From: a virus
Lineage: Duplodnaviria > Heunggongvirae > Uroviricota > Caudoviricetes
Reading direction: 5' to 3' (one strand)
Virus record (IMG/VR): IMGVR_UViG_2541047912_000003
Length of the DNA stretch: 52,958 bases
Made by a program: the position numbers and the translations under genes. Positions 14,623 through 32,667 of the stretch are shown here, one piece after another. Below the pieces are notes generated by a model, which did no database searches, was not told the origin of the DNA, and saw nothing but the letters and a program-made list of their open reading frames with translations. The stretch's first letter is position 1, and each line of letters opens with the position of its first letter.

Positions 14623-15412
14623 TTACGCCAGTTGTACAGACACGAACTCATCAGGGTCAGCCAGCAGCATCAGCGGTGCTGACTGAATCATGGTGAACTC
14701 ACGCGCCGGGTCGCCGGTGGTCACCCAGTTTTTCGGGTAACGGGCAGAGGCGTTAATGCCTTCGCGCTGTGCGTCCGCATCCTGAATGCAACCATAGGTG
14801 CGCAGACCGCGTGCCTGAGTGTTCCCCAGCACCATCGTGTTGTCCGGCAGGAAGTTCTTTTTGACGCCGTTTTCCACGTACTGTCCGGAATACACGACGA
14901 TGGCCACATCGCCATACATTCCCTTATAAGACACCGCTTTGCCCAGGTCTTTTACCGCTGTCTCCAGCTCGGAATGAGAGCCGCGACGGGTATCCAGCTT
15001 CTCCTTGACGGCTTTGAAGGAACGGAACAGCGCCCAGCCTTTCGGATCAAACACGATGATATTCACCACACCGCTGGCGTTCAGCGCGTAGGCTTCGATA
15101 TCGTCGGTCGGGTCATACGTGGACTTGTCACGCTTGCTCCACTCCGTGCCGCCGGACTGCGTGATGTTATTCGCCTCACTGCGGCCCATATCCACCTCAA
15201 CCGGATCGAAGGCTTCACCGGTCATGGTATATTTGCCCTTAAGCACGGCAGAAACTGCCTGCATCTCTTCGACCTGGGCAATCGCCAGATTTTCATCCAG
15301 CATATTCTGCCGAATAATACGGCGACGACGGTAAGCCGGGTCAGCCAGGTTCTGCGGATCTTCATCCGGCAGGCGACGCAGGGTCATCTGCGGATTCACC
15401 TCATGCTTGGGT
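14623..15412 (-). pseudogene. E: major capsid protein E, C-terminal ~260 codons, separated from its 5' part by a 10.7-kb insertion
   Basis: Translation PKHEVNPQMTLRRLPDEDPQ...FVSVQLA is collinear with lambda gpE from about residue 83 to the end; preceded in frame by a stop at the insertion junction. Confidence 0.9.
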
Positions 15413-15413
15413 T
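15404..15413. repeat. left copy of 10-bp direct repeat tgcttgggtt (putative att core, attL side)
   Basis: Identical 10-mer at 26130-26139; both lie exactly at the break in E. Confidence 0.7.
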
Positions 15414-15620
15414 ACATGAGTCAAATAGAAAAAAGATACTTGATTTAACAGAGATTTATTTTATAAATGAGAGGGTGCAGAATTACGTAGCAATACATGC
15501 TGCAATACATGGTTAGGGAAAAGCCTTCTTGGCATCGTACAAAAAACAAACCGAATTTTTTCTAACACAGCCAAGTAAAGCCTCCTTCACTTAATTAGTT
15601 AAATTATAAAGGAATATTCA

Positions 15621-16763
15621 ATGAAAATTTTTCTTGCTCATGCAAAAGAAGATGAAACGATAACTGAAGAAATCTATGAAAGGCTAAAAAGTGGAGGATA
15701 TTCCCCTTGGATGGATGTAAAAGATATACCCGCTGGCGTAAACTGGGATTATGAAATCCAAAAAAACTTCGCTAATTCAAACTTGATAATCCTTATCCTT
15801 AGCAAAGTGAGCACTCAGAAAAATGGTTATATTCGCCGCGAAATAAATGACGCCATTGATAAACTAAAGTATTACAAACCAGATGATGTGTTCGTGATAC
15901 CATTACTTATTGATGATTGCGAAGTACCCGCCTACATATCAAGCAAGCTCCAATTCATTGATTTTAAGAGAAATGATGGTTGGGACATTTTATCTAGATC
16001 TTTAAGATTAGCAGCATCGCAACAAAAACTTGAAATATCTCAAGGTATCACTTATGGGCCATTTAACTTTAGCAGCGAGGTTTTCAAGGAAGAATATAAC
16101 AAGATCCCAGGGCATGAAATTGAAATAGCATATCCAAGAATTGAAAGCCATACATTACCGAAATCAGCAAAACTCATTAGTGATTACTTTTCAGGAAAAG
16201 CGGCTTTACATATTTTTTCTGAACGCACATCACTATGGCCAGGAACACCATATTGGGATGAAGAATATAAACACACTTACACTAGTTCCTATAATGAAAG
16301 TTATAACATCTCATACTGTAACGAAAATGTTATGAGCATCCTTCATTCCGTACATTGGTATGGTGCGGGAGCAGCACACCCTAACAGTCATTTTGAAACT
16401 AGTAATTTCGTAATAACCAAGGATGACTACGCATACAAATTTAGTTTATGGGATGTATTTACCGAAGGGAAAGAGCAAGAAGCGATTAATAAGATAAAAC
16501 AAAAAATAATCTCTGAATCAGCTCGTGAATTTTGGGAGAAAACTGGTGAAAAACCAAGTGAGGACGACATTAGTACGTTTGCAACGGGTATCATGGATAG
16601 TAACTTAGACTCGTTCACAATAAATAGTGATGGATTTAGATTCCATTTTGCACCTTACGAAATTCATGCATATGCTTTTGGTTCTTGGGAATTCTTTATC
16701 TCATTCTTTGAAGTAATAGACTTCCTTAAAGAGGATGGAATTTACTCTCTAATAAGGAGTTAA
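15621..16763 (+). CDS. TIR-domain protein (380 aa) with ~250-aa C-terminal domain of unknown function; candidate defence/abortive-infection effector
   Basis: N-terminal ~120 aa (KIFLAHAKEDE, ILILSKVS, candidate catalytic Glu in RREINDA, VIPLLIDDCEVP) fit the bacterial TIR fold; AT-rich codon usage unlike flanking DNA; strong RBS aaggaa; C-terminal WYGAGAAHP motif loosely resembles the GGAH motif of DUF3298/RsiV-type domains (unverified). Confidence 0.7.
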   Translation: MKIFLAHAKEDETITEEIYERLKSGGYSPWMDVKDIPAGVNWDYEIQKNFANSNLIILILSKVSTQKNGYIRREINDAIDKLKYYKPDDVFVIPLLIDDCEVPAYISSKLQFIDFKRNDGWDILSRSLRLAASQQKLEISQGITYGPFNFSSEVFKEEYNKIPGHEIEIAYPRIESHTLPKSAKLISDYFSGKAALHIFSERTSLWPGTPYWDEEYKHTYTSSYNESYNISYCNENVMSILHSVHWYGAGAAHPNSHFETSNFVITKDDYAYKFSLWDVFTEGKEQEAINKIKQKIISESAREFWEKTGEKPSEDDISTFATGIMDSNLDSFTINSDGFRFHFAPYEIHAYAFGSWEFFISFFEVIDFLKEDGIYSLIRS

Positions 16764-17129: not shown

Positions 17130-17330
17130 AACAAAACCAGAGAAAGGAAACGACAGAGGCCAAAAAGCCTGTTTTTAGCACCTGTCGTTTCCTTTCTTTT
17201 TAGGGGGTGTTTTTAATAAAAACATTAAGTTACGGCGAAGAAGAACGGAAACGCCTTAAACAGGAAAATTTTCACAAATAGCAAAAAACTGCGCGCCTGA
17301 CGCCCCGTAGCCTGTCAGATCGCCGGAAAG
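17130..17330. other. satellite cos site (cosQ-cosN-cosB-like), paralogous to the prophage cos
   Basis: About 200 bp roughly 90% identical to 32340-32540 (aggaaacgacag, cacctgtcgtttcctttc, ttacggcgaagaagaacggaaacgcc blocks) in the same orientation; cosN-equivalent 12-mer at 17295-17306 (gcctgacgcccc) differs from the prophage's. Confidence 0.75.
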
Positions 17331-17361
17331 GACCCGCCAGCCAGAGCGGGCCCTAATTTCA

Positions 17362-17745
17362 TCAACCAATCAGCTTATAGCGACCATCCCGTGCATTGCG
17401 GCGTACACGCTCAATCTTGAGGCATAGCGCCGCATCTGGCTTTTTTGGGACAGGTACGCGGCAATATTCAGAAGCGCGAGGAATATTATTTATCCAGTCG
17501 ATCACTTCACTTAAATACCAGGCCTTACGCCCTTCCGTAACCTGCACACGCTCCGGGAACTCTCCACTAGCCTCAAGGTTTAGCAGTGTACGCCGACTCA
17601 GGGTTGTAATTTCCATCACCTGATTCATATCAACAAGGCGCTCGCTTAAACACATTTTGTCAGCGATAGCTTTTAATTCCTCTACAGCTGGATTCGGGTA
17701 CATCATTTCGGCAAGTGGCTTAAGGTCATTGTAATCATTCTGCAT
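17362..17745 (-). CDS. HTH protein (127 aa; AlpA/MerR-like winged helix), adjacent to satellite cos; possible packaging-redirection or regulatory protein
   Basis: C-terminal half (EITTLSRRTLLNLEASGEFPERVQVTEGRKAWYLSEVIDWI) resembles AlpA-type HTH and the Nu1 DNA-binding fold; strong RBS; last gene of the capsid operon next to cos. Confidence 0.5.
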   Translation of the reverse strand: MQNDYNDLKPLAEMMYPNPAVEELKAIADKMCLSERLVDMNQVMEITTLSRRTLLNLEASGEFPERVQVTEGRKAWYLSEVIDWINNIPRASEYCRVPVPKKPDAALCLKIERVRRNARDGRYKLIG

Positions 17746-17756
17746 TGTATCCCCCT

Positions 17757-18098
17757 TTACACACGAGCCAGCGGCTGAACAGAAATACCTGAGCCAACAA
17801 ACGCTGCAATCTTTACTGACAGTTCTTTTACAGACTCAGGCCAGTTCAGAGCATCAACATTTAAGACACCTGTCTTATAGACCTGAGCCTGTGTTTTTTT
17901 CGCGGTGTCGATTTGTACAGCGGAAACATAAACCGCTTTACCTACGCTCGAACCATCCCATACCACCAGTGCACCTGTTGCATCTTCCTGCATCAGTGGC
18001 GTAAATGCAGGAATTACCCCTTTATTAGCTGAAAATATCCCCAGCGTAGTCACCAGTGCTTCAGTGCCAGCCATGAGTTCAGTGTAATGAGTAGCCAT
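17757..18098 (-). CDS. head decoration protein (lambda D paralogue) encoded by the satellite
   Basis: 113 aa; shares the PLM...VVWDG...YKTG...WPE pattern with lambda gpD (26430-26762) but is divergent; strong RBS. Confidence 0.7.
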   Translation of the reverse strand: MATHYTELMAGTEALVTTLGIFSANKGVIPAFTPLMQEDATGALVVWDGSSVGKAVYVSAVQIDTAKKTQAQVYKTGVLNVDALNWPESVKELSVKIAAFVGSGISVQPLARV

Positions 18099-18107
18099 TG
18101 CTCCCCC

Positions 18108-19148
18108 TTAGCCAATGCGAACGGTAACAAAACGATTGATGCGGGCCGGTATTGGCTGTGGTGCTGAATGTGTCTGCACATATTCAATAGCCGGATCACC
18201 AGGCACAATATAGTTTTTCGGTGCAAGTTCGGCTTTAGTCAGCCCCATTCGGATTAGCTCCGGATCCTGAATACCGCCATAGGCGACAATCCCCTGAAGA
18301 GCCGTATTGCCAAGCACCATCAAATCAGGATCAAGGAAATGTTTTTCAGTTCCGTCCTCGTCGGTATAACGCCCGCTGTATACAACAATCGCAACATCGC
18401 CCATATACCCTTTAAAACTCACCGAATCACCAAGGTCTTTAAGGGCCGTTTCCAGTTCGGAATTAGAACCACGACGGGTATCCAGAGCCTCTTTTATCGC
18501 TCTGAATGAACGGTATTTCTTCCATACATTACCGCCCATAATGATGATATTAGTGACGCCCTCACTAAATTCTGCGTAGCTCTCAATATCATCATTTGGA
18601 TCAAAAGTTTCTTTATCCTTACCTGACCACTCAGTACCGCCAGACTGAGTGATGATATTTTGTGGTTTTATATTCCAGTCCAGCTCATAACGTTCAATAC
18701 CATCGCCCTCAATGATATTTTTCCCCGTTGTGATTGCCTGAACGGCAAGCCATTCAATACGTGCACGAATAGCTTTAGCCTGATTTACAATCGCCTGTTT
18801 AACTTTAATATTACGCGCTCCAAAAGCATTGTATTGCTCAGGTGATACACCAGCAGGGCGCACAGCTAACTTATTTGGATCAATGCTGCTTTTCGGCTTC
18901 ATATAGCCTGGACGAATTGTTTTTGATTCGTACCCTTCGTCACGTGAAACTTTACTACCTACCATAGGAGAACAAAACGCTGCAATTGGGATATTTGGAT
19001 CGTCGATTGTATCAAGAATAATATCGCGCGATTCAAACATTACCGAACGAGTAAAAAACAAACTGGTAAACAACGCATTTAGTTGTTTTTGTACATCTAC
19101 AGCATTAACCACCTGTACAAGCTGGGTAGGCGAATATAAATCAACCAT
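18108..19148 (-). CDS. major capsid protein (lambda E paralogue) encoded by the satellite
   Basis: C-terminal two thirds about 50% identical to lambda gpE (ITQSGGTEWS, DTRRGSNSELETA, YMGDVAIVVYSG); likely start at MVDLYSPTQ with AGAGGA RBS; the supplied ORF is extended upstream. Confidence 0.8.
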   Translation of the reverse strand: MVDLYSPTQLVQVVNAVDVQKQLNALFTSLFFTRSVMFESRDIILDTIDDPNIPIAAFCSPMVGSKVSRDEGYESKTIRPGYMKPKSSIDPNKLAVRPAGVSPEQYNAFGARNIKVKQAIVNQAKAIRARIEWLAVQAITTGKNIIEGDGIERYELDWNIKPQNIITQSGGTEWSGKDKETFDPNDDIESYAEFSEGVTNIIIMGGNVWKKYRSFRAIKEALDTRRGSNSELETALKDLGDSVSFKGYMGDVAIVVYSGRYTDEDGTEKHFLDPDLMVLGNTALQGIVAYGGIQDPELIRMGLTKAELAPKNYIVPGDPAIEYVQTHSAPQPIPARINRFVTVRIG

Positions 19149-19365: not shown

Positions 19366-19815
19366 TTAAAACGGAATATCATCTCCCCATTGCTCATTAT
19401 CTCCCACTGGTGGATGGCTTCCTTGCTGATCTGCCTGTTGTTTTGCTCTGTTCAGTGCGTCAGTAGCCTGACCCTGTTGACCTTTTTTGCCGCCCGGTCG
19501 CACCGTTCGCGCACTGATTACGCTGTCTGCGATAACCTGCCAGCCCTGCCGCGTTTCACCGTTCTGTCCAGTCCACTGGCTCACCTGCATATTACCCGCC
19601 ACGCTCAGGAGTTCGCCTTTGTGATGCTTTGCCAGCGCGTCGGCTTGTCTGCCAAACGCCAGGACAGATAACCACATCGTCGCCTGACCGTCATCCGACT
19701 GACTGCAGGGCAGTGATACCGCCATACGCGCCAGCGTCATGGGGGTGCCCTTGCTGGTCTGTTTTGTCTGCGGGTCGTCCACCAACCGCCCGTAAACTGA
19801 TATTTGCGCCGTCAT
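19366..19815 (-). CDS. ssb: single-stranded DNA-binding protein
   Basis: 149 aa, OB-fold-like N-terminus, Gly/Gln-rich linker and C-terminal acidic tip DDIPF; RBS present. Confidence 0.85.
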   Translation of the reverse strand: MTAQISVYGRLVDDPQTKQTSKGTPMTLARMAVSLPCSQSDDGQATMWLSVLAFGRQADALAKHHKGELLSVAGNMQVSQWTGQNGETRQGWQVIADSVISARTVRPGGKKGQQGQATDALNRAKQQADQQGSHPPVGDNEQWGDDIPF

Positions 19816-20099: not shown

Positions 20100-20335
20100 A
20101 CCCTTCACCTGTTCACCTTTTGATATTTTCTCTTTTAATTCATAATGTTAATGGGTGAACAGTTTCACAAAAACTATTCACCAACTGTTCACCACTGTTC
20201 ACCCTTGAAGCTCAATAAACAATCAAAAAGGTGAACAGTGAATAGTTTGGTGAACAGTTCATAAATAACTGTTCACCCTATAATATACTGATATAAAAGA
20301 TATTTATGACAGGGTGAACAGTGGTGAACAGTTAT
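20100..20335. repeat. iteron cluster (about 10 copies of TGTTCACC / GGTGAACAG in both orientations); putative satellite replication origin
   Basis: Motif recurs throughout 20103-20330 in an AT-rich context, immediately downstream of the primase-helicase gene. Confidence 0.75.
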
Positions 20336-20344
20336 TCCATAAGT

Positions 20345-22165
20345 TTAATTTTTGCTATCGTCATTAGTGACCGATACACATGATGGCATCCAGTCTTCTG
20401 ATTCCTCCGTCAGGGTCACGTTTGAACGCAAACCGTGCTTCGTTTTCCGTTTCATATACTCCCTGCCATATTCCGCCATTGCCCCCGGCATATCTTTACC
20501 GAAGCGCGTCAGTGTTACAGGTTTACCAAACCCATGTGCCCTCATATAAGCCAGATAGGCATGATAGAGATACCTGCGTGGGCTGAATGGCACAATTTCA
20601 GCATTACCCACTAACAGGCCATCACACATTACCGATGCCATGAGATAACCGCAGAAGTCCACCAGCGAATCCCCCTCTCGCTTTATCGCCAGTGCTTCTT
20701 CAGATTTCTGCTGCTCATATAACAGGCGTCTGGCTTCGTCCTGATCAGCAAACCTTGTAAGCAGATGACGAATCACTACCGCCAGCTCACCTTCTATTTT
20801 TTCCGCCAGCATCGAATCGCGTTCGTTCTCCGGTACAACTTCCGAAAAATTGAATATCACCCGACGACGTGAGATCCCCCCGCTGCGGTCACTGAATGAC
20901 ATGGCGTTATTGTTAACCGCCAGCACTACTGCCGGAATACGCGTTGAATAGGGGGCTTTGTGTTTCGGGTCAATTGCCACCTTGTCACCGCCTGTAATGG
21001 CCTTAATCCCTGCCCCATCACCAGCGTAGCGGGTCATATCCGGCATGATAATCAGCGAAAAGCCAACCACTAACGCACGTTCCCTTGCATCTTCCAGCGC
21101 CTTCATGCTTGCTGATACTGTATTAGCCTTACCCGCCAGCATGGTGCAAATCTCCGCCATCACACTTTTACCACTTCCCCCCGGCCCTGTTACCTCAATG
21201 AATAACTGCCAGTCGTACCGGTTCGCCAGCACCATGAATAATGCCGCCAGTACGCGATCTGCCTTGCGGTCATTCTCAGCCACCGAACGGCGCAACCACT
21301 TCCAGAAATTCGGCGCATGTGTTGCCAGCGTTTCCCCCTCTGCTGGTGGGCTGAAAGGTAATTCACTGGCAATTAACAACCAGTCGTTTTTGTTATGCTC
21401 CCGAAAATTACCAGTTCTGGTATCAAATACCCCGTTACTGAATCCAATCAGGTTACGGGCTGTATTCCCCATTACAGGCAAACTTAACTTCATGGTATCT
21501 ACCGCCGATTTAATAGCGTTCTGCGAATAGCTGATCTCCGCATCAATGAAAATCTGCGCCATAGCACGCTGTAACTCTTTATCCTGAACCGGCTCCCATA
21601 CAACGCCGTTGTAATGATGAACGGTGTCAGAGTCGGCATTGATTGCCAGTTCGCCGCCGTAATGTGCAAGGAGAACTTCACCGCGCTGGCTGGCCCCCAT
21701 CTGATTCAACGCCAAAGATGAAGCACGCTCGTCATTTTTGCGCTCAGCCTTCTTCACTGGCAGTTCAATCACCAGACTTTCCCCATGCTCCGCTTCAGCT
21801 TTTAGGCCGACAAGGCGCGGAGTCCAGTCTTCAGGCTCTCGATCAACAAAGCTACGGTAACAACGTGCTTCCTTTACGCCTGCAATAGCAAGTAATGTCG
21901 CAACCTTCGTCAGATTTTTCTCTGCAATCTTTCCGGCACGATAAACACGCACATAATGACGGCCTTCATCGATAATTTGCATATCATCCAGGTTTTCCAG
22001 TTGTTCCGTACCCAGAATTACTGGTGGTGTATCATCTGCTGCAATATGCTTACCCGCCCATTCATTCCATTCTTTTGCATGGCTCCAGGCATCACTGCCA
22101 GCAAAAATGATGACTTCTGTCATTTTGTCGCGCGGTTGGTATTTTAAGTTCGGAGCACGTTTCAT
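20345..22165 (-). CDS. replication primase-helicase (P4/PICI-type, P-loop NTPase)
   Basis: 606 aa with Walker A GPGGSGKS and downstream Walker B-like hydrophobic-acidic stretch; GGAGG RBS; adjacent iteron origin. Confidence 0.8.
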   Translation of the reverse strand: MKRAPNLKYQPRDKMTEVIIFAGSDAWSHAKEWNEWAGKHIAADDTPPVILGTEQLENLDDMQIIDEGRHYVRVYRAGKIAEKNLTKVATLLAIAGVKEARCYRSFVDREPEDWTPRLVGLKAEAEHGESLVIELPVKKAERKNDERASSLALNQMGASQRGEVLLAHYGGELAINADSDTVHHYNGVVWEPVQDKELQRAMAQIFIDAEISYSQNAIKSAVDTMKLSLPVMGNTARNLIGFSNGVFDTRTGNFREHNKNDWLLIASELPFSPPAEGETLATHAPNFWKWLRRSVAENDRKADRVLAALFMVLANRYDWQLFIEVTGPGGSGKSVMAEICTMLAGKANTVSASMKALEDARERALVVGFSLIIMPDMTRYAGDGAGIKAITGGDKVAIDPKHKAPYSTRIPAVVLAVNNNAMSFSDRSGGISRRRVIFNFSEVVPENERDSMLAEKIEGELAVVIRHLLTRFADQDEARRLLYEQQKSEEALAIKREGDSLVDFCGYLMASVMCDGLLVGNAEIVPFSPRRYLYHAYLAYMRAHGFGKPVTLTRFGKDMPGAMAEYGREYMKRKTKHGLRSNVTLTEESEDWMPSCVSVTNDDSKN

Positions 22166-22676: not shown

Positions 22677-23034
22677 GGCACACCTCCTGACGAATACGGG
22701 CGGCGAATATCATCACGCAGCCAGTTGGGGATTGCTGGCGGGCTTCCTGTTCGCTGGTGGCCTCGATGGTAATCACGCGCGGTTGTGTCGTACTCAGGGC
22801 GATAAAACGCCAGAGGAAATTGTTTTCACATTTCTGAATAAACAGCGTGTTTTCTTCCCGCCCTTTCCAGAAAGCCGCAGTATAGCCCATCTCCTTAACC
22901 ATCTTGCGGGCATCAACCAGCGTGTCAGCGGCTACATGTACCGTAGTTGCTCCATCTGCTATGCGATCGCGATGTAGCGCCAGAAAGATGTATATAAATT
23001 TAGGGTGAGTTTGGGTATGCTGTGTTCCAGCCAT
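22669..23034 (-). CDS. hypothetical protein (121 aa), first gene of the minus-strand satellite operon
   Basis: Internal Met of the 304-aa supplied ORF with GAGG RBS; the upstream extension is Ser/Arg-rich and overlaps a convincing plus-strand gene. Confidence 0.5.
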   Translation of the reverse strand: MAGTQHTQTHPKFIYIFLALHRDRIADGATTVHVAADTLVDARKMVKEMGYTAAFWKGREENTLFIQKCENNFLWRFIALSTTQPRVITIEATSEQEARQQSPTGCVMIFAARIRQEVCHE

Positions 23035-23039
23035 AATCG

Positions 23040-23240
23040 TTACCTCGTTTAACGGTTTGGTTAGAAGCCCGGTTAGTGTTCGCGCACTGCCGGGTTTCGT
23101 CGTTTTTATGAATCGATCATTGTGAGATACATAGCGACCATAATGTGAGATATACATTATATTGTGGTGATATACATTGCAAGTGTTTTTATATCTCACT
23201 TTTGTGTATAGTGATATACACATAACAAATTGGTGATTAA
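23040..23240. promoter_or_regulatory. divergent promoter/operator region of the satellite with repeated TGAGATA(T)ACAT-like motifs
   Basis: Several copies of gtgagatacat / gtgagatatacat / gtgatatacat between divergent genes at 23034 (minus) and 23243 (plus). Confidence 0.5.
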
Positions 23241-24501: not shown

Positions 24502-24738
24502 TTAAACTACCCACTCACCTCGAATCCATGCCTGCACTTCTGAAAGACGATATGCAACAGCAGTGGAACCAATCTTGATCCGCTTAGGAAATTTTCCTTC
24601 CTTCTCCAGCTTCCAGCGTGTGCTGTTCGCAAGAGTGGTTAGCTCCCGACATTCTTTCTCACGGATCATTCGGTCAATGTTAGGAATGTACTCCAGACCC
24701 TTTTTATCAACAATTGCCATTTTTTTCATGTTAACCAA
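24502..24738 (-). CDS. alpA: AlpA-family excisionase/transcriptional regulator
   Basis: 78 aa, HTH (ELTTLANSTRWKLEKEGKFPKRIKIGSTAVAYRLSEVQAWI) typical of AlpA/Xis; immediately downstream of int. Confidence 0.8.
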   Translation of the reverse strand: MVNMKKMAIVDKKGLEYIPNIDRMIREKECRELTTLANSTRWKLEKEGKFPKRIKIGSTAVAYRLSEVQAWIRGEWVV

Positions 24739-25966
24739 CCTTTTGTTTGAGGATCGTCACTTTTGAATCAGCACCTGCGATGCTATTGAGATATGTAGTC
24801 CAGAGTTCCAGAGCATCCAGTTTTTTAGCCATAAACTTACTCCGGTTGTAAACACCTGCCACGCCAGGTAGCGCATGGCCTAACAGTTGTTCTACTACAT
24901 AAAATTCAACACCGAGATCACTTAGATGAGTAGATAGCGTTCTTCTAAGGTCGTGTAGTGACCATTGTTTTTCATGGCCCAAACGTTTACCGATTTTCCC
25001 CCCAATCTTGCTTACGCTTTCTCTAATTCGCAGACTTCCCAGCACATAACCAGTATGTTTTGTCTCTTCGTGAACATCCGTTACCCACTGTCGTAGAATT
25101 TCAGGTACTGGTCTGACGATTTCAACACCAGTTTTTGAGTGATCTTTTGGTACAGTCCAAACCCAACTTTCGAGATCCCATTCGCTCCATTCTGATAATC
25201 GGGCTTCACTCATTCGACATCCAAATACTGTACAAAGCACAAACATTTTTCGCGTGTATTCAGACATTAGTTTTAAATCAGGCTCGACAAAAATTGCCTT
25301 CCAGAGCTGGCCGAGTTCGGCTTCATCCAGAACCCGATCCCGCTTACCTGCAATCTGCCCCACATCACTCATGCGCAAATCCTTTAAAGCATCACACGTC
25401 GCGTACTGGCGTACCCGACAAAAACGAAGAGCTAATTTAGTGTCAGAAAAAACATACGCCGCCATAACTGGTGCATTACGTTTAATTCGGTCAAAACAGT
25501 CCAGCCATTCATATAGGTGAGTGTCATTTACGGGCAAATGACCGATATAGGGAAAGATATGCTTTCGAAATCTGCCAAGCGTTACAGCATGAGTTTTACG
25601 ACGCACCTTACAGTAATTTTCATACCAGTAATTTAGTGCATCCTCCACTGTGACCGGCTTTAAGCGTTCTTCAGCCTGAATCTTAATCTGGATACGCGGA
25701 TCACGTTTGTCAGCCAACCAACCACGGCACTCGTCGCGCTTTTCCCTTGCCTGTTTGAGTGACATATCAGGATATTTACCCAACGTTAGCCAGACCGGAG
25801 CAGCCCGGCCACCTGCTAACCTGTAGAAGAAAACAAAGCTCACAGCCCCTTTAGTACTCACACGAATAGAAAGCCCCTTTCCATCAGCAATGGTGATCTG
25901 CTTTTCTCTGGGTTTCCCCAGATATCCTTTAAGCGCTTTGTCGCTCAGTTTGTTCTCGCCAGCCAT
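24731..25966 (-). CDS. int: tyrosine integrase (P4-type) of the satellite
   Basis: N-terminal arm-binding region, catalytic region with HDLRRT and HxLGH-like (LLGHA) motifs and terminal Tyr (VYNRSKF); start taken at MAGENKLSD. Confidence 0.85.
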   Translation of the reverse strand: MAGENKLSDKALKGYLGKPREKQITIADGKGLSIRVSTKGAVSFVFFYRLAGGRAAPVWLTLGKYPDMSLKQAREKRDECRGWLADKRDPRIQIKIQAEERLKPVTVEDALNYWYENYCKVRRKTHAVTLGRFRKHIFPYIGHLPVNDTHLYEWLDCFDRIKRNAPVMAAYVFSDTKLALRFCRVRQYATCDALKDLRMSDVGQIAGKRDRVLDEAELGQLWKAIFVEPDLKLMSEYTRKMFVLCTVFGCRMSEARLSEWSEWDLESWVWTVPKDHSKTGVEIVRPVPEILRQWVTDVHEETKHTGYVLGSLRIRESVSKIGGKIGKRLGHEKQWSLHDLRRTLSTHLSDLGVEFYVVEQLLGHALPGVAGVYNRSKFMAKKLDALELWTTYLNSIAGADSKVTILKQKVG

Positions 25967-26098
25967 TTTTAGCCCCAAAAAGCAATACAAGCTGCAATAC
26001 AGAGATGATTGCAACACACAGATAACGAGGAAAATTCAGTGAAAGCGCCAGATAAATTTATTCTTTATTATCAAAAGATTAAGTGTAAAAACCAGCAA

Positions 26099-26374
26099 CT
26101 ACACGAAAGCCTCAGAAAGCCATGCTAAGTGCTTGGGTTTGACATAACCCGGCGTAAATTCAGAGGTGGAGCCGCCACGGGATCGGATAACCTCACCGGA
26201 AACAATCGGCGAAACGTACAGCGCCATGTTTACCAGTCCCGGAATTTGTGAGAGATAGACTTTTTCCGTGGTGAAAGGATAGGTTTCACGGAAAAACAGG
26301 CGCAGAAACAGCGGATCGAACTTAAAGTGATGCTGGGTCGATGCCAGTAATTCTGCAGTTGTATATACAGACAT
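26099..26374 (-). pseudogene. E: major capsid protein E, N-terminal 82 codons, fused in frame to 9 codons of satellite DNA
   Basis: MSVYTTAELLASTQHHFKFDPLFLRLFFRETYPFTTEKVYLSQIPGLVNMALYVSPIVSGEVIRSRGGSTSEFTPGYVKPKH matches the lambda gpE N-terminus, then diverges (LAWLSEAFV, stop) at the junction. Confidence 0.9.
26130..26139. repeat. right copy of 10-bp direct repeat tgcttgggtt (putative att core, attR side)
   Basis: Identical to 15404-15413; encodes the PKH codons present at both E fragment ends. Confidence 0.7.
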
Positions 26375-26429: not shown

Positions 26430-26762
26430 TTAAACGATGCTGATTGCCGTTCCGGCAAACGCGGTCCGTTTTTTCGTCTCGTCGCTGGCAGCCTCCGGCC
26501 AGAGCACATCCTCATAACGGAACGAGCCGGACTTGTAGAACGTCAGTGTGGTGCTGGTCTGGTCAGCAGCAACCGCAAGAATGCCAACGGCTGCACCGTC
26601 GGTGGTGCCATCCCACACAACCAGCTTACGGGTAGTGCCATCCAGCATCAGTGGGGTCATTGCAGGCGTTTTCGCACTCAATCCGCCAGGCGCAATTGCT
26701 GTATGAGCCGGATCACTGTTACCCAGCGGCTGGTAATGGTTAAACTCTTCTTTTGTCGCCAT
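26430..26762 (-). CDS. D: head decoration protein D
   Basis: 110 aa, matches lambda gpD. Confidence 0.95.
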
Positions 26763-32339: not shown

Positions 32340-32520
32340 CACGGACAAAAACAGAGAAAGGAAACGACAGAGGCTAAAAAGCCCGTTTTCAGCACCTGTC
32401 GTTTCCTTTCTTTTCAGGGGGTGTTTTAAATAAAAACATTAGGTTACGGCGAAGAAGAACGGAAACGCCTTAAACCGGAAAATTTTCATAAATAGCGAAA
32501 ACCCGCGAGGTCGCCGCCCC
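32340..32520. other. cos: prophage cos site (cosB R-site/IHF region and cosN)
   Basis: Reverse complement of the lambda left-end sequence; cosN 12-mer GGGCGGCGACCT is the reverse complement of 32508-32519 (aggtcgccgccc); lies immediately upstream of Nu1. Confidence 0.85.
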
Positions 32521-32667
32521 GTAACCTGTTGGATCGACGGAAAGGACCCGAAAACGAGAATAATTATCACTTACAGCAAGAATCGAATCTGATCTATTAT
32601 GGTGCTTGCTATTATGTGCCGGCACAAGTGCGTCGTTTACCGTCATTTCACACAGAGGCATCATCAA

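Follow-up and report, generated by a model that had tools for sequence, protein, structure and literature searches.

The window, a stretch of 52,958 nucleotides, contains a lambda-like prophage whose major capsid gene E is split by a satellite that encodes a capsid protein (E') and a decoration protein (D') of its own. The satellite is a known helper-embedded PICI (HE-PICI) of the Eco567.11capE family (11capE below), site class E:Phage_cap_E:80. We consider it probable, though well short of certain, that E' and D' are the late-zone capsid module of this island and that they would build shells of normal size rather than act as a capsid-size switch. The arrangement itself, in which a satellite with a capsid gene of its own lies at a 10-bp core in its helper's capsid gene and shares the helper's type of cos, is already known and was published in 2023 (PMC10111431).

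Integration site and identity of the element

Two copies of the 10-bp core AACCCAAGCA delimit an element of 10,726 bp. The attL-side crossover core is located at positions 26130..26139, where AACCCAAGCA lies on the minus strand, and the attR-side copy at 15404..15413. Helper E is interrupted at codon 82, which leaves an N-terminal fragment (codons 1-82; 26130..26374, minus strand) and a C-terminal fragment (codons ~80-341; 14623..15413, minus strand). When the two halves are joined at the core, they give an intact E protein of 341 aa that is identical to lambda gpE at 328 of its 341 positions, and precise excision would be predicted to restore helper E. The preliminary description, which had proposed a satellite of about 10.7 kb embedded in helper E, was correct on both points. 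It had also placed the att core in a region common to helper E and E', and this holds: the core sits within the sequence GYVKPKH of helper E, near codon 80 in the Phage_cap_E profile, and the PGYxKPK motif that contains it is the best-conserved stretch in the N-terminal third of the E family. The counterpart of the core in E' differs at five of the 10 DNA positions. The core genes of the element share their strand with the helper's late operon.

In the attP published for HE-PICIs, a pair of doubled TGTATTGC motifs in the same orientation flanks the centre, one lying 81 ± 2 bp upstream of it and the other 132 ± 2 bp downstream (PMC10111431). The element has one doubled TGTATTGC arm motif at 15490..15509 (minus strand), ~81 bp away from the centre of the core, and a second one at 25982..26001 (minus strand), ~133 bp from it, so that the spacings agree with those published.

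The founding helper-embedded PICI is 11capE of E. coli NRG857c (Tommasini, Mageeney & Williams 2023, PMC10111431). The integrase of our element, a P4-type tyrosine integrase of 411 aa that belongs to the HE-PICI clade (24731..25966, minus strand; Pfam), is identical to that of 11capE at 409 of 411 positions (99.5%), and a placement outside the 11capE clade was excluded on this ground. The capsid proteins are identical at 345 of 346 positions, and the RefSeq protein accession of D' is one and the same in NRG857c and IAI39. The two islands also have in common the 10-bp core in helper E, the arm motifs and the gene order, and the helper of 11capE is likewise a lambda-like prophage at icd; satellite cos and helper cos are about 90% identical in both cases. 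They differ in the cargo between cos and attR, which is TIR+DUF3298 in the element and DUF262+HEPN in NRG857c; outside it there are a few point differences. When the near-identical 11capE was induced, the composite was found to excise and replicate, after which the satellite excised, but particles of 11capE or of its helper have never been recovered (PMC10111431).

The helper is a lambda-like icd prophage, of which ~42.2 kb lie in the window. Its decoration gene D is intact (26430..26762, minus strand), and its cos (32345..32550, minus strand), whose cosN at 32508-32519 is the canonical lambda sequence GGGCGGCGACCT, is located upstream of Nu1. The annotation marks the side tail fibre gene as truncated, and the helper may therefore be partly defective.

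Gene content of the element

The genes are arranged in the order int-alpA, then an Icd-like/repressor-like gene with small ORFs, then DUF4222-primase-SSB, and finally E'-D'-AlpA-like-cos, which conforms to the four-zone order of HE-PICIs (integration, Bro/regulatory, replication and late). The alpA gene (excisionase/activator; 24502..24729, minus strand; Pfam Phage_AlpA, E=3e-15, and the RefSeq annotation of identical copies) adjoins int. In the replication zone, a primase/helicase gene with D5_N, DUF5906 and Pox_D5 domains (20345..22165, minus strand; Pfam) is accompanied by a gene for a single-stranded DNA-binding protein (19366..19815, minus strand; Pfam SSB). Iterons TGGTGAACAGTT are present at 20154-20342, just 3' of the primase/helicase gene (repeat families D6 and D13), and are likely the ori. 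The element thus has the features that mark Gram-negative PICIs of the EcCICFT073 type, namely int, alpA, a pri/rep gene with this likely ori at its 3' side, a size of about 10-15 kb and a helper-type cos.

The regulatory zone gave no match to a Bro-N domain or to a C4/isrK RNA. P4-like immunity RNAs of the C4/isrK type were also searched for with Rfam at a permissive threshold, which returned only a weak symR-like match (35 bits versus a gathering score of 61), and this candidate was discarded. Promoter and terminator scans did not exceed shuffled expectation.

Directly 3' of D' lies a gene for a second AlpA-family winged-helix protein of 127 aa (17362..17745, minus strand; Pfam Phage_AlpA, PDB 8c3t AlpA, phrog_2790), and the order E'-D'-AlpA-like is also found in Serratia and E. 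coli variants. An Rpp-type redirection of packaging by this cos-adjacent protein was considered and rejected, as the protein belongs to the AlpA family and is unlike RppA and RppC. RppA gave no meaningful match to the element by tblastn, and neither Rpp nor TerS was found. Between cos and attR, in a variable region, lies an accessory gene encoding TIR_2 + DUF3298 (15621..16763, plus strand; Pfam, PADLOC TIR models), a candidate anti-phage defence gene; relatives carry DUF262+HEPN, Abi_C or other genes in this position.

Searches with Pfam, PHROGs and tblastn found no homologue of a portal, protease, terminase or Rpp protein in the element, as had been stated for the first three before these searches were made, and the element has no tail or lysis genes either. 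Judged by its gene content, the element must rely on head-completion, packaging and tail functions of the helper. This dependence had been anticipated. The element also carries a lambda-type cos with 90% identity to the helper site.

The satellite cos

The satellite cos, a lambda-type site of 206 bp with a cosQ-cosN-cosB-like organization, is located at 17131..17336 (minus strand), and its 90% identity to the helper cos (blastn) takes in the cosB region. The satellite cosN is a variant 12-mer, GGGCGTCAGGCG (17294-17305), which differs from the helper cosN at five of the 12 positions, and efficient cutting of the satellite site by the helper terminase is therefore not certain. Four cos-to-cos copies of the satellite amount to 42.9 kb (4 x 10,726), compared with ~42.2 kb for the helper. 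By length, such a tetramer falls within the lambda packaging range and would fill a normal head; because four copies come so close to the helper genome in size, the small genome of the satellite does not require a small head.

The capsid protein E' and the decoration protein D'

The E' gene (18108..19148, minus strand) encodes a major capsid protein of 346 aa that belongs to the HK97-fold family of lambda gpE (Phage_cap_E; Pfam E=1e-41). A ribosome-binding site, AAGAGG, is present 6 nt 5' of the ATG at 19148. A 404-aa ORF extends to 19322, but we rejected the idea that it encodes a longer form of E' with additional, novel N-terminal sequence: homologues measure 343-352 aa, the ribosome-binding site lies ahead of the ATG at 19148, and the RefSeq annotation has 346 aa. 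E' is 43% identical to the reconstructed helper E over 328 aa (BLASTP, E=1e-84). The similarity is unevenly distributed: identity is 49-52% across the C-terminal two thirds but 26% over residues 1-120, which bears out the earlier description of an E homologue about 50% identical in its C-terminal two thirds and divergent at its N-terminus. The N-terminus is divergent but still homologous to that of E.

The D' gene (17757..18098, minus strand) encodes a head-decoration protein of 113 aa. That it is a D-like protein was confirmed by its assignment to the gpD (HDPD) family (Pfam E=4e-15) and by its match to helper D, with 41% identity over 78 aa (residues 30-107; BLASTP, E=2e-17). Both the E'/E and the D'/D similarities far exceed chance (BLASTP).

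The N-arm/E-loop region of E' is 30% identical to that of the lambda-E group and 45-53% identical inside the satellite group, and the N-terminal arm of D' is unlike that of helper D and conserved with that of c1500, the decoration protein of the PICI EcCICFT073. Both features argue for a cognate E'/D' pair.

A fold model of E' gave TM scores of 0.84-0.88 to lambda gpE and of 0.90 to PDB 3BQW, its top fold match. According to this model, E' would be an ordinary gpE-like subunit, with the fold and length of gpE and no extra domain; the model does not discriminate T number. The preliminary description had proposed alignment and structural modelling of E' against E as a check on capsid-size remodelling, and their outcome, the same fold and length and no extra domain, does not favour that idea.

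An old lineage of satellite capsid genes

Database matches to E' form two groups, one 52-99% identical to it and the other about 43% or less; the four members of the first group that were sampled are all in PICI contexts. E' and D' genes are retained at full length in at least six genera, always in satellites, over a range of identity from 99% to 52%. When E' was compared by tblastn with 50,697 phage records, the closest sequence was lambda E, at 42.3% identity, and a recent capture of E' from the helper or another phage was rejected, as nothing exceeded this value. Compared with a variant that is 85%/94% identical, E' has a dN/dS of 0.09 and D' one of 0.12, at dS ~1. These ratios (about 0.09-0.12) indicate that both genes are kept under purifying selection, and E' and D' belong to an old, satellite-resident lineage that such selection has maintained.

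The pair is not tied to the interruption of E. It is also carried by PICIs integrated at fis in the chromosome, by EcCICFT073, and by an Edwardsiella HE-PICI that splits the portal gene of a helper whose E and D are intact. The E'/D' module is generic to Gram-negative PICIs.

Comparison with other satellites

EcCICFT073 offers the closest point of comparison with experimental results. Its capsid protein c1499 (crystal structure PDB 3BQW) is 55% identical to E', and its decoration protein c1500 is 54% identical to D' over the full length; the genes are located after pri-ssb and before cos, as in our element (Fillol-Salom et al. 2018/2019, PMC6092414, PMC6739421). Both islands have a lambda-like helper, and cos packaging by the helper terminase, as in EcCICFT073, is predicted for our element too. 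However, EcCICFT073 is integrated in the chromosome and not in its helper, and it has a divergent cosB together with RppA, which redirects the helper TerS, whereas our element has a helper-like cosB and no Rpp. In EcCICFT073, deletion of the capsid or the decoration gene left transfer and interference unchanged; the encapsidated DNA was all phage-sized and was carried in heads of phage size, with no small capsids found (PMC6092414). At 55% identity, and with its use of Rpp, EcCICFT073 is an imperfect guide to the present element.

In SaPIbov5, another cos-packaged satellite, Ccm is, like E', a homologue of the HK97-fold capsid protein of the helper; it occupies the pentamers and changes the shape and size of the capsid (Carpena 2016; Hawkins et al. 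2021, PMC8569155). Ccm, however, belongs to a Gram-positive system, is unrelated to E' in sequence and has no decoration partner, and its size effect has been demonstrated while none is known for the E' lineage. The capsid-forming PICI (cf-PICI) EcCIEDL933 has the same int, alpA and rep backbone and a capsid protein of its own, but cf-PICIs also encode portal, protease, head-tail connectors, HNH, TerS and TerL, and tails are all that they steal (Alqurainy et al. 2023, preprint 10.1101/2022.09.08.507074). Our element encodes just the shell and decoration proteins; it lacks the full head set and the terminase and HNH genes by which cf-PICIs are recognized. P4, with its helper P2, is similar in size (about 11 kb), P4-type integrase, D5-like primase, helper-type cos and accessory defence hotspot. 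P4 makes small heads by means of an external scaffold (Sid) and a decoration protein (Psu) that act on the helper capsid protein, and its helper is P2-like rather than lambda-like; no homologues of Sid, Psu or Delta, which serve P4 in capsid sizing and transactivation, were found among the ORFs of the element with Pfam and PHROGs.

Discussion

The P4-type integrase has placed the element at the core in codon 82 of helper E. In the sequence of events that we favour, late transcription of the helper would read into the element, so that E' and D' are expressed. E' and its cognate D' would assemble lambda-like shells of normal size on the helper portal and protease/scaffold, which would supplement or replace gpE while helper E is still split, and the helper terminase would package the satellite from its own cos as cos-to-cos multimers. 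That E' replaces helper E in normal-sized shells is plausible. Because deletion of c1499 or c1500 had no phenotype in EcCICFT073, it is solely from conservation that we infer a role for E' and D' in building satellite capsids.

The preliminary description had taken the small genome and the E'/D' pair as signs of size remodelling by capsid substitution. E' and D' would then replace gpE and gpD and give smaller heads (e.g., T=3/T=4) for the 10.7-kb genome, with portal, protease/scaffold, terminase and tail supplied by the helper and with the helper genome excluded. SaPIbov5 Ccm is a precedent for a capsid homologue that redirects shape and size (PMC8569155), and PmCI172, which has a capsid homologue, makes small capsids, a link made without a genetic test (PMC6092414). 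The N-arm/E-loop third is moreover where E' and E are least alike (26-30% identity), and in HK97-fold capsids these parts make inter-subunit and scaffold contacts; a cognate D' has also been maintained beside E'. Nevertheless, we consider such small heads unlikely. The E'/D' module is not confined to elements that interrupt E; with its 55%/54% identical genes, EcCICFT073 packaged phage-sized DNA only; E' has the fold and length of gpE with no added domain; the element encodes neither a scaffold nor another known size determinant, as Sid, Psu, CpmAB and TcaP-like proteins were all sought among its ORFs (Pfam, PHROGs) and none was found; and a T=7 lambda head has room for the satellite tetramer. 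In addition, a simple volume-scaling estimate gives a capacity of ~21 kb for a T=4 lambda-type head and of ~14 kb for a T=3 head, both of which fit a single 10.7-kb copy poorly because cos packaging needs a nearly full head. The remodelling claim thus found no support.

Another role for E' and/or D' would be to act on the helper or on host defences, either as poison subunits or as capsid proteins that escape or decoy capsid-sensing systems. PICIs in general interfere with their helpers, a divergent capsid protein made alongside E could co-assemble badly with it, and the context is rich in defence functions, with the TIR cargo gene nearby. Even so, loss of c1499 or c1500 did not relieve the interference of EcCICFT073 with lambda, which RppA explains, and a poison or decoy would leave the purifying selection on a matching decoration protein unexplained; we therefore regard this role as improbable. 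The two genes might instead be passively captured late genes of no present use to the satellite. Capture of late genes, helped by the position of the element among those of the helper, has been proposed (Tommasini et al., PMC10111431); PICI late zones are dynamic and take up helper late genes (PMC10111431), and the lack of a phenotype for c1499 and c1500 would fit as well. But a dN/dS of ~0.1 at dS ~1 and the retention of full-length genes in satellites across at least six genera make idle passengers highly improbable. As no phage source exceeds 42% identity, any capture must be ancient, with the genes maintained since.

Between classical PICIs and cf-PICIs there may be room for a 'shell-only' capsid-forming strategy, in which the satellite makes the shell from E' and D' and steals portal, protease/scaffold, terminase and tail from the helper. 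We offer this only tentatively and hold it to be rather unlikely. If it is true, there would be shells of satellite protein, perhaps of another size or stability than helper heads, and the null result in EcCICFT073 would be a matter of redundancy with helper gpE in the laboratory.

In many Gram-negative PICIs, strong purifying selection maintains a capsid/decoration pair from a lineage found in none of the phage records searched, yet the only knock-outs, those in EcCICFT073, gave no phenotype. The HE-PICIs at the E site are a natural place to ask what this pair does, because the satellite keeps the helper capsid gene broken while it is integrated and helper E is not available until the satellite leaves. 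If E' and D' do build a shell, the range of satellite strategies would be extended between stealing everything and stealing only tails.

A satellite element splits the capsid gene of a lambda-like prophage

The window equals positions 2851477-2904434 of NZ_CP151067.1 (E. coli 21KM1392) and is occupied by a lambda-like prophage in minus-strand orientation, extending from just past sitD to the prophage integrase adjoining icd. The head genes of this helper are ordered as in lambda (Nu1, A, portal gene, S49 protease gene, D and E), and upstream of Nu1, at 32508-32519, is the canonical lambda cosN, GGGCGGCGACCT. The helper E gene is in two pieces: codons 1-82 stop at 26130, and the remainder restarts at 15413. 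A 10-bp core, AACCCAAGCA, is common to both break points, and rejoining the pieces at this core yields an intact 341-aa protein, identical to lambda gpE of PDB 7VI9 at 328 positions. The insert is 10,726 bp core-to-core, with a G+C content below that of its flanks. In the region 673-2739 and its flanks, the prophage has a side tail fibre gene that is truncated according to the RefSeq annotation, as well as iss and a gene for an ompC-like porin, and it abuts sitABCD. The helper may be short of full competence.

The core is located in PGYxKPK, the best-conserved motif of the N-terminal third in both lambda-E and satellite capsid proteins, and is therefore a sensible target for a satellite that has to locate many helper variants. 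The core and the corresponding DNA of the satellite's own capsid gene, AAGCCGAAAAGC, disagree at 5 of 10 positions, which accords with a published comment judging self-integration unlikely (PMC10111431).

The element contains genes for integration (a P4-type integrase and alpA), regulation (an Icd-like/repressor-like gene and small ORFs) and replication (a DUF4222 protein, a D5-type primase and SSB), followed by late genes encoding a lambda E-family capsid protein (E'), a gpD-family decoration protein (D') and a second AlpA-family protein, and then a cos region. Three to four TGGTGAACAGTT-type iterons are present immediately 3' of the primase gene (20154-20342), where the replication origin of a PICI is expected. 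Between the Icd-like and YlcI-like genes, the divergent regulatory region gave a weak symR-like Rfam match (23029-23101, plus strand; 35 bits against a gathering score of 61, E=0.001), and Rfam detected no C4/isrK-type immunity RNA in the element. Searches within the element did not reveal a portal, protease, terminase or Rpp (redirector of helper TerS) homologue, and Pfam and PHROGs analyses of its ORFs identified neither a scaffold nor another known size determinant.

The second AlpA-family protein (127 aa; 17362-17745, minus strand) is encoded directly after D', just upstream of cos, a place that it keeps in a Serratia fis PICI and in E. coli variants; the Gram-negative PICI EcCICFT073 likewise encodes RppA in this late zone. 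The 127-aa protein may regulate late genes or bind cos. Between cos and attR lies a variable cargo slot (15621-16763 here; L004:2012-3728, L012:13180-13941 and L014:12230-13546 in compared loci of other genomes). In the window, it holds a TIR_2+DUF3298 gene with PADLOC TIR-model matches, on the plus strand, opposite to the other element genes; in E. coli NRG857c it holds DUF262+HEPN, and in variants whose E' is 85% identical an Abi_C or AF_1680-like protein. The slot looks like a defence-gene hotspot.

The element is an 11capE-type helper-embedded PICI

Tommasini, Mageeney and Williams (2023) described Eco567.11capE from NRG857c, hosted by a lambda-like icd prophage, with a 10-bp attL/attR identity block and a cos segment common to satellite and helper at about 90% identity (PMC10111431). 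They named the class helper-embedded PICIs (HE-PICIs), of which 201 were mapped to site class E:Phage_cap_E:80 and 290 to further sites in late genes (PMC10111431). Our element matches the NRG857c proteins at 409/411 (integrase) and 345/346 (E') residues, and the distances from the core centres to its doubled TGTATTGC motifs are about 81 and about 133 bp, as against 81 +/- 2 and 132 +/- 2 bp in the publication (PMC10111431). The sole difference is the accessory cargo. We therefore identify it with very high confidence as an 11capE-type HE-PICI; at least 80% of it is present in 26 of 5,426 complete E. coli genomes. The satellite embedded in helper E that the preliminary description had recognized is confirmed, but it has been known since the 2023 publication.

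E' and D' form a conserved pair found in satellites

E' (346 aa, Phage_cap_E; 18108-19148, minus strand) and D' (113 aa, gpD family; 17757-18098, minus strand) were assigned with Pfam. E' is 43% identical to helper E over 328 aa (E=1e-84), and D' is 41% identical to helper D over 78 aa (E=2e-17). Identity between E' and E is 26% in the first 120 residues and 49-52% across the C-terminal two thirds, in line with the estimate given previously. A 404-aa ORF reaching 19322 was rejected as an artefact of ORF extension, because the ATG at 19148 has an AAGAGG ribosome-binding site in front of it, homologues are 343-352 aa long and RefSeq gives 346 aa. The E' stop and D' start share a frame and are separated by 9 nt (18096-18113; …RIG*GGAMATHY…). 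In one contig, the database protein P0005 (463 aa) is this pair with Leu in place of the stop, either a genuine fusion of capsid and decoration proteins or an error of sequencing.

Both proteins are under purifying selection (dN/dS 0.09 for E', with dS about 1.05, and 0.12 for D'). The alignment of D' with helper D begins only at residue 30, but that with the EcCICFT073 decoration protein c1500 covers its entire length, and the E' N-arm/E-loop shows 30% identity with the lambda-E group versus 45-53% inside the satellite group. In the lambda capsid, the E-loop and N-arm of gpE pair with the gpD N-terminus; together, these patterns suggest that D' is fitted to E' and not to E.

In a search of 5.8 billion proteins, the relatives of E' split into a 52-99% identical group (Escherichia, Cedecea, Scandinavium, Serratia, Edwardsiella, Salmonella and Lelliottia) and lambda-E-like proteins at 43% or less; among 50,697 phage records, nothing was nearer than lambda E (42.3%). 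All sampled members of the former group are in PICIs. The same pair occurs in the model Gram-negative PICI, EcCICFT073 (c1499, 55% identical to E'; c1500, 54% to D'). The Serratia fis PICI has the order int-alpA-primase-E'-D'-AlpA-like. A Lelliottia fis PICI (L009:11409-12752) adds to E' and D' an S49 (gpC-like) protease, and has a Phage_HCP protein near alpA, which looks like a step to a fuller satellite-encoded head module. In Edwardsiella tarda, an HE-PICI (L007:765-12681) with E' (60% identical) and D' interrupts a lambda-like prophage in the portal gene, and this helper has intact E and D genes of its own. Judged by these relationships, the E'/D' pair is a satellite lineage and not an answer to the interruption of E. 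E. coli variants occur at the E site and off it. Some E-site variants (E' 85% identical) encode an extra Nu1-like small terminase subunit (L013:11948-12490, L012:11948-12490), with 38% identity to the Nu1 of our helper; the packaging-specificity module is therefore variable within the family.

Packaging and capsid size

The cosQ and cosB of the element are helper-like (about 90% identical), and the reliance on helper head and terminase functions proposed earlier holds. The satellite cosN (17294-17305) has the 12-nt cohesive end GGGCGTCAGGCG, also found in the NRG857c and IAI39 copies, which differs from the helper's at 5 of 12 positions; a third variant, GGGCGGAAGGCG, occurs in phage YDC107_1. 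From these sequences, satellite ends would not anneal with helper ends. Lambda accepts about 38-51 kb for packaging. Four element copies amount to 42.9 kb, similar to the helper DNA within the window (about 42.2 kb), whereas three (32 kb) and five (54 kb) fall under and over this range. Four copies fit a normal head, and therefore a 10.7-kb genome needs no small head.

This arithmetic bears on the earlier proposal that substitution by E' and D' remodels capsid size, which we consider unlikely even though size control by a capsid homologue has a precedent in SaPIbov5 Ccm and possibly a second in PmCI172. DNA extracted from EcCICFT073 particles was all phage-sized, and deletion of c1499 or c1500 neither relieved interference with lambda nor changed island transfer; the authors concluded that full-sized heads take up the island and that the terminase passes over cos sites (Fillol-Salom et al. 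2018, PMC6092414). An AlphaFold model for E' (pLDDT 79, pTM 0.80) resembles the CFT073 protein crystal structure 3BQW (TM 0.90) and lambda gpE (7SJ5, 7VI9; TM 0.84-0.88), predicting a gpE-like fold with no added domain. The element encodes no known size determinant either. The preliminary description stands as to satellite, gene content and helper dependence, but its size-remodelling inference is unsupported.

We propose instead that E' and D' build normal-sized shells with helper parts, a role that we assign tentatively, at slightly below even chances. The element is integrated at the core within helper E and has an independent replication module; in 11capE, mitomycin C caused the composite of satellite and helper to excise and replicate, and then led to satellite excision, and virions were not recoverable (PMC10111431). 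Q-antiterminated helper late transcription would cross the co-oriented element and express E' and D', which, with the helper portal and protease/scaffold, could form lambda-type shells and supplement or replace gpE while helper copies still hold the insert. Satellite concatemers would then be packaged as tetramers by the helper terminase.
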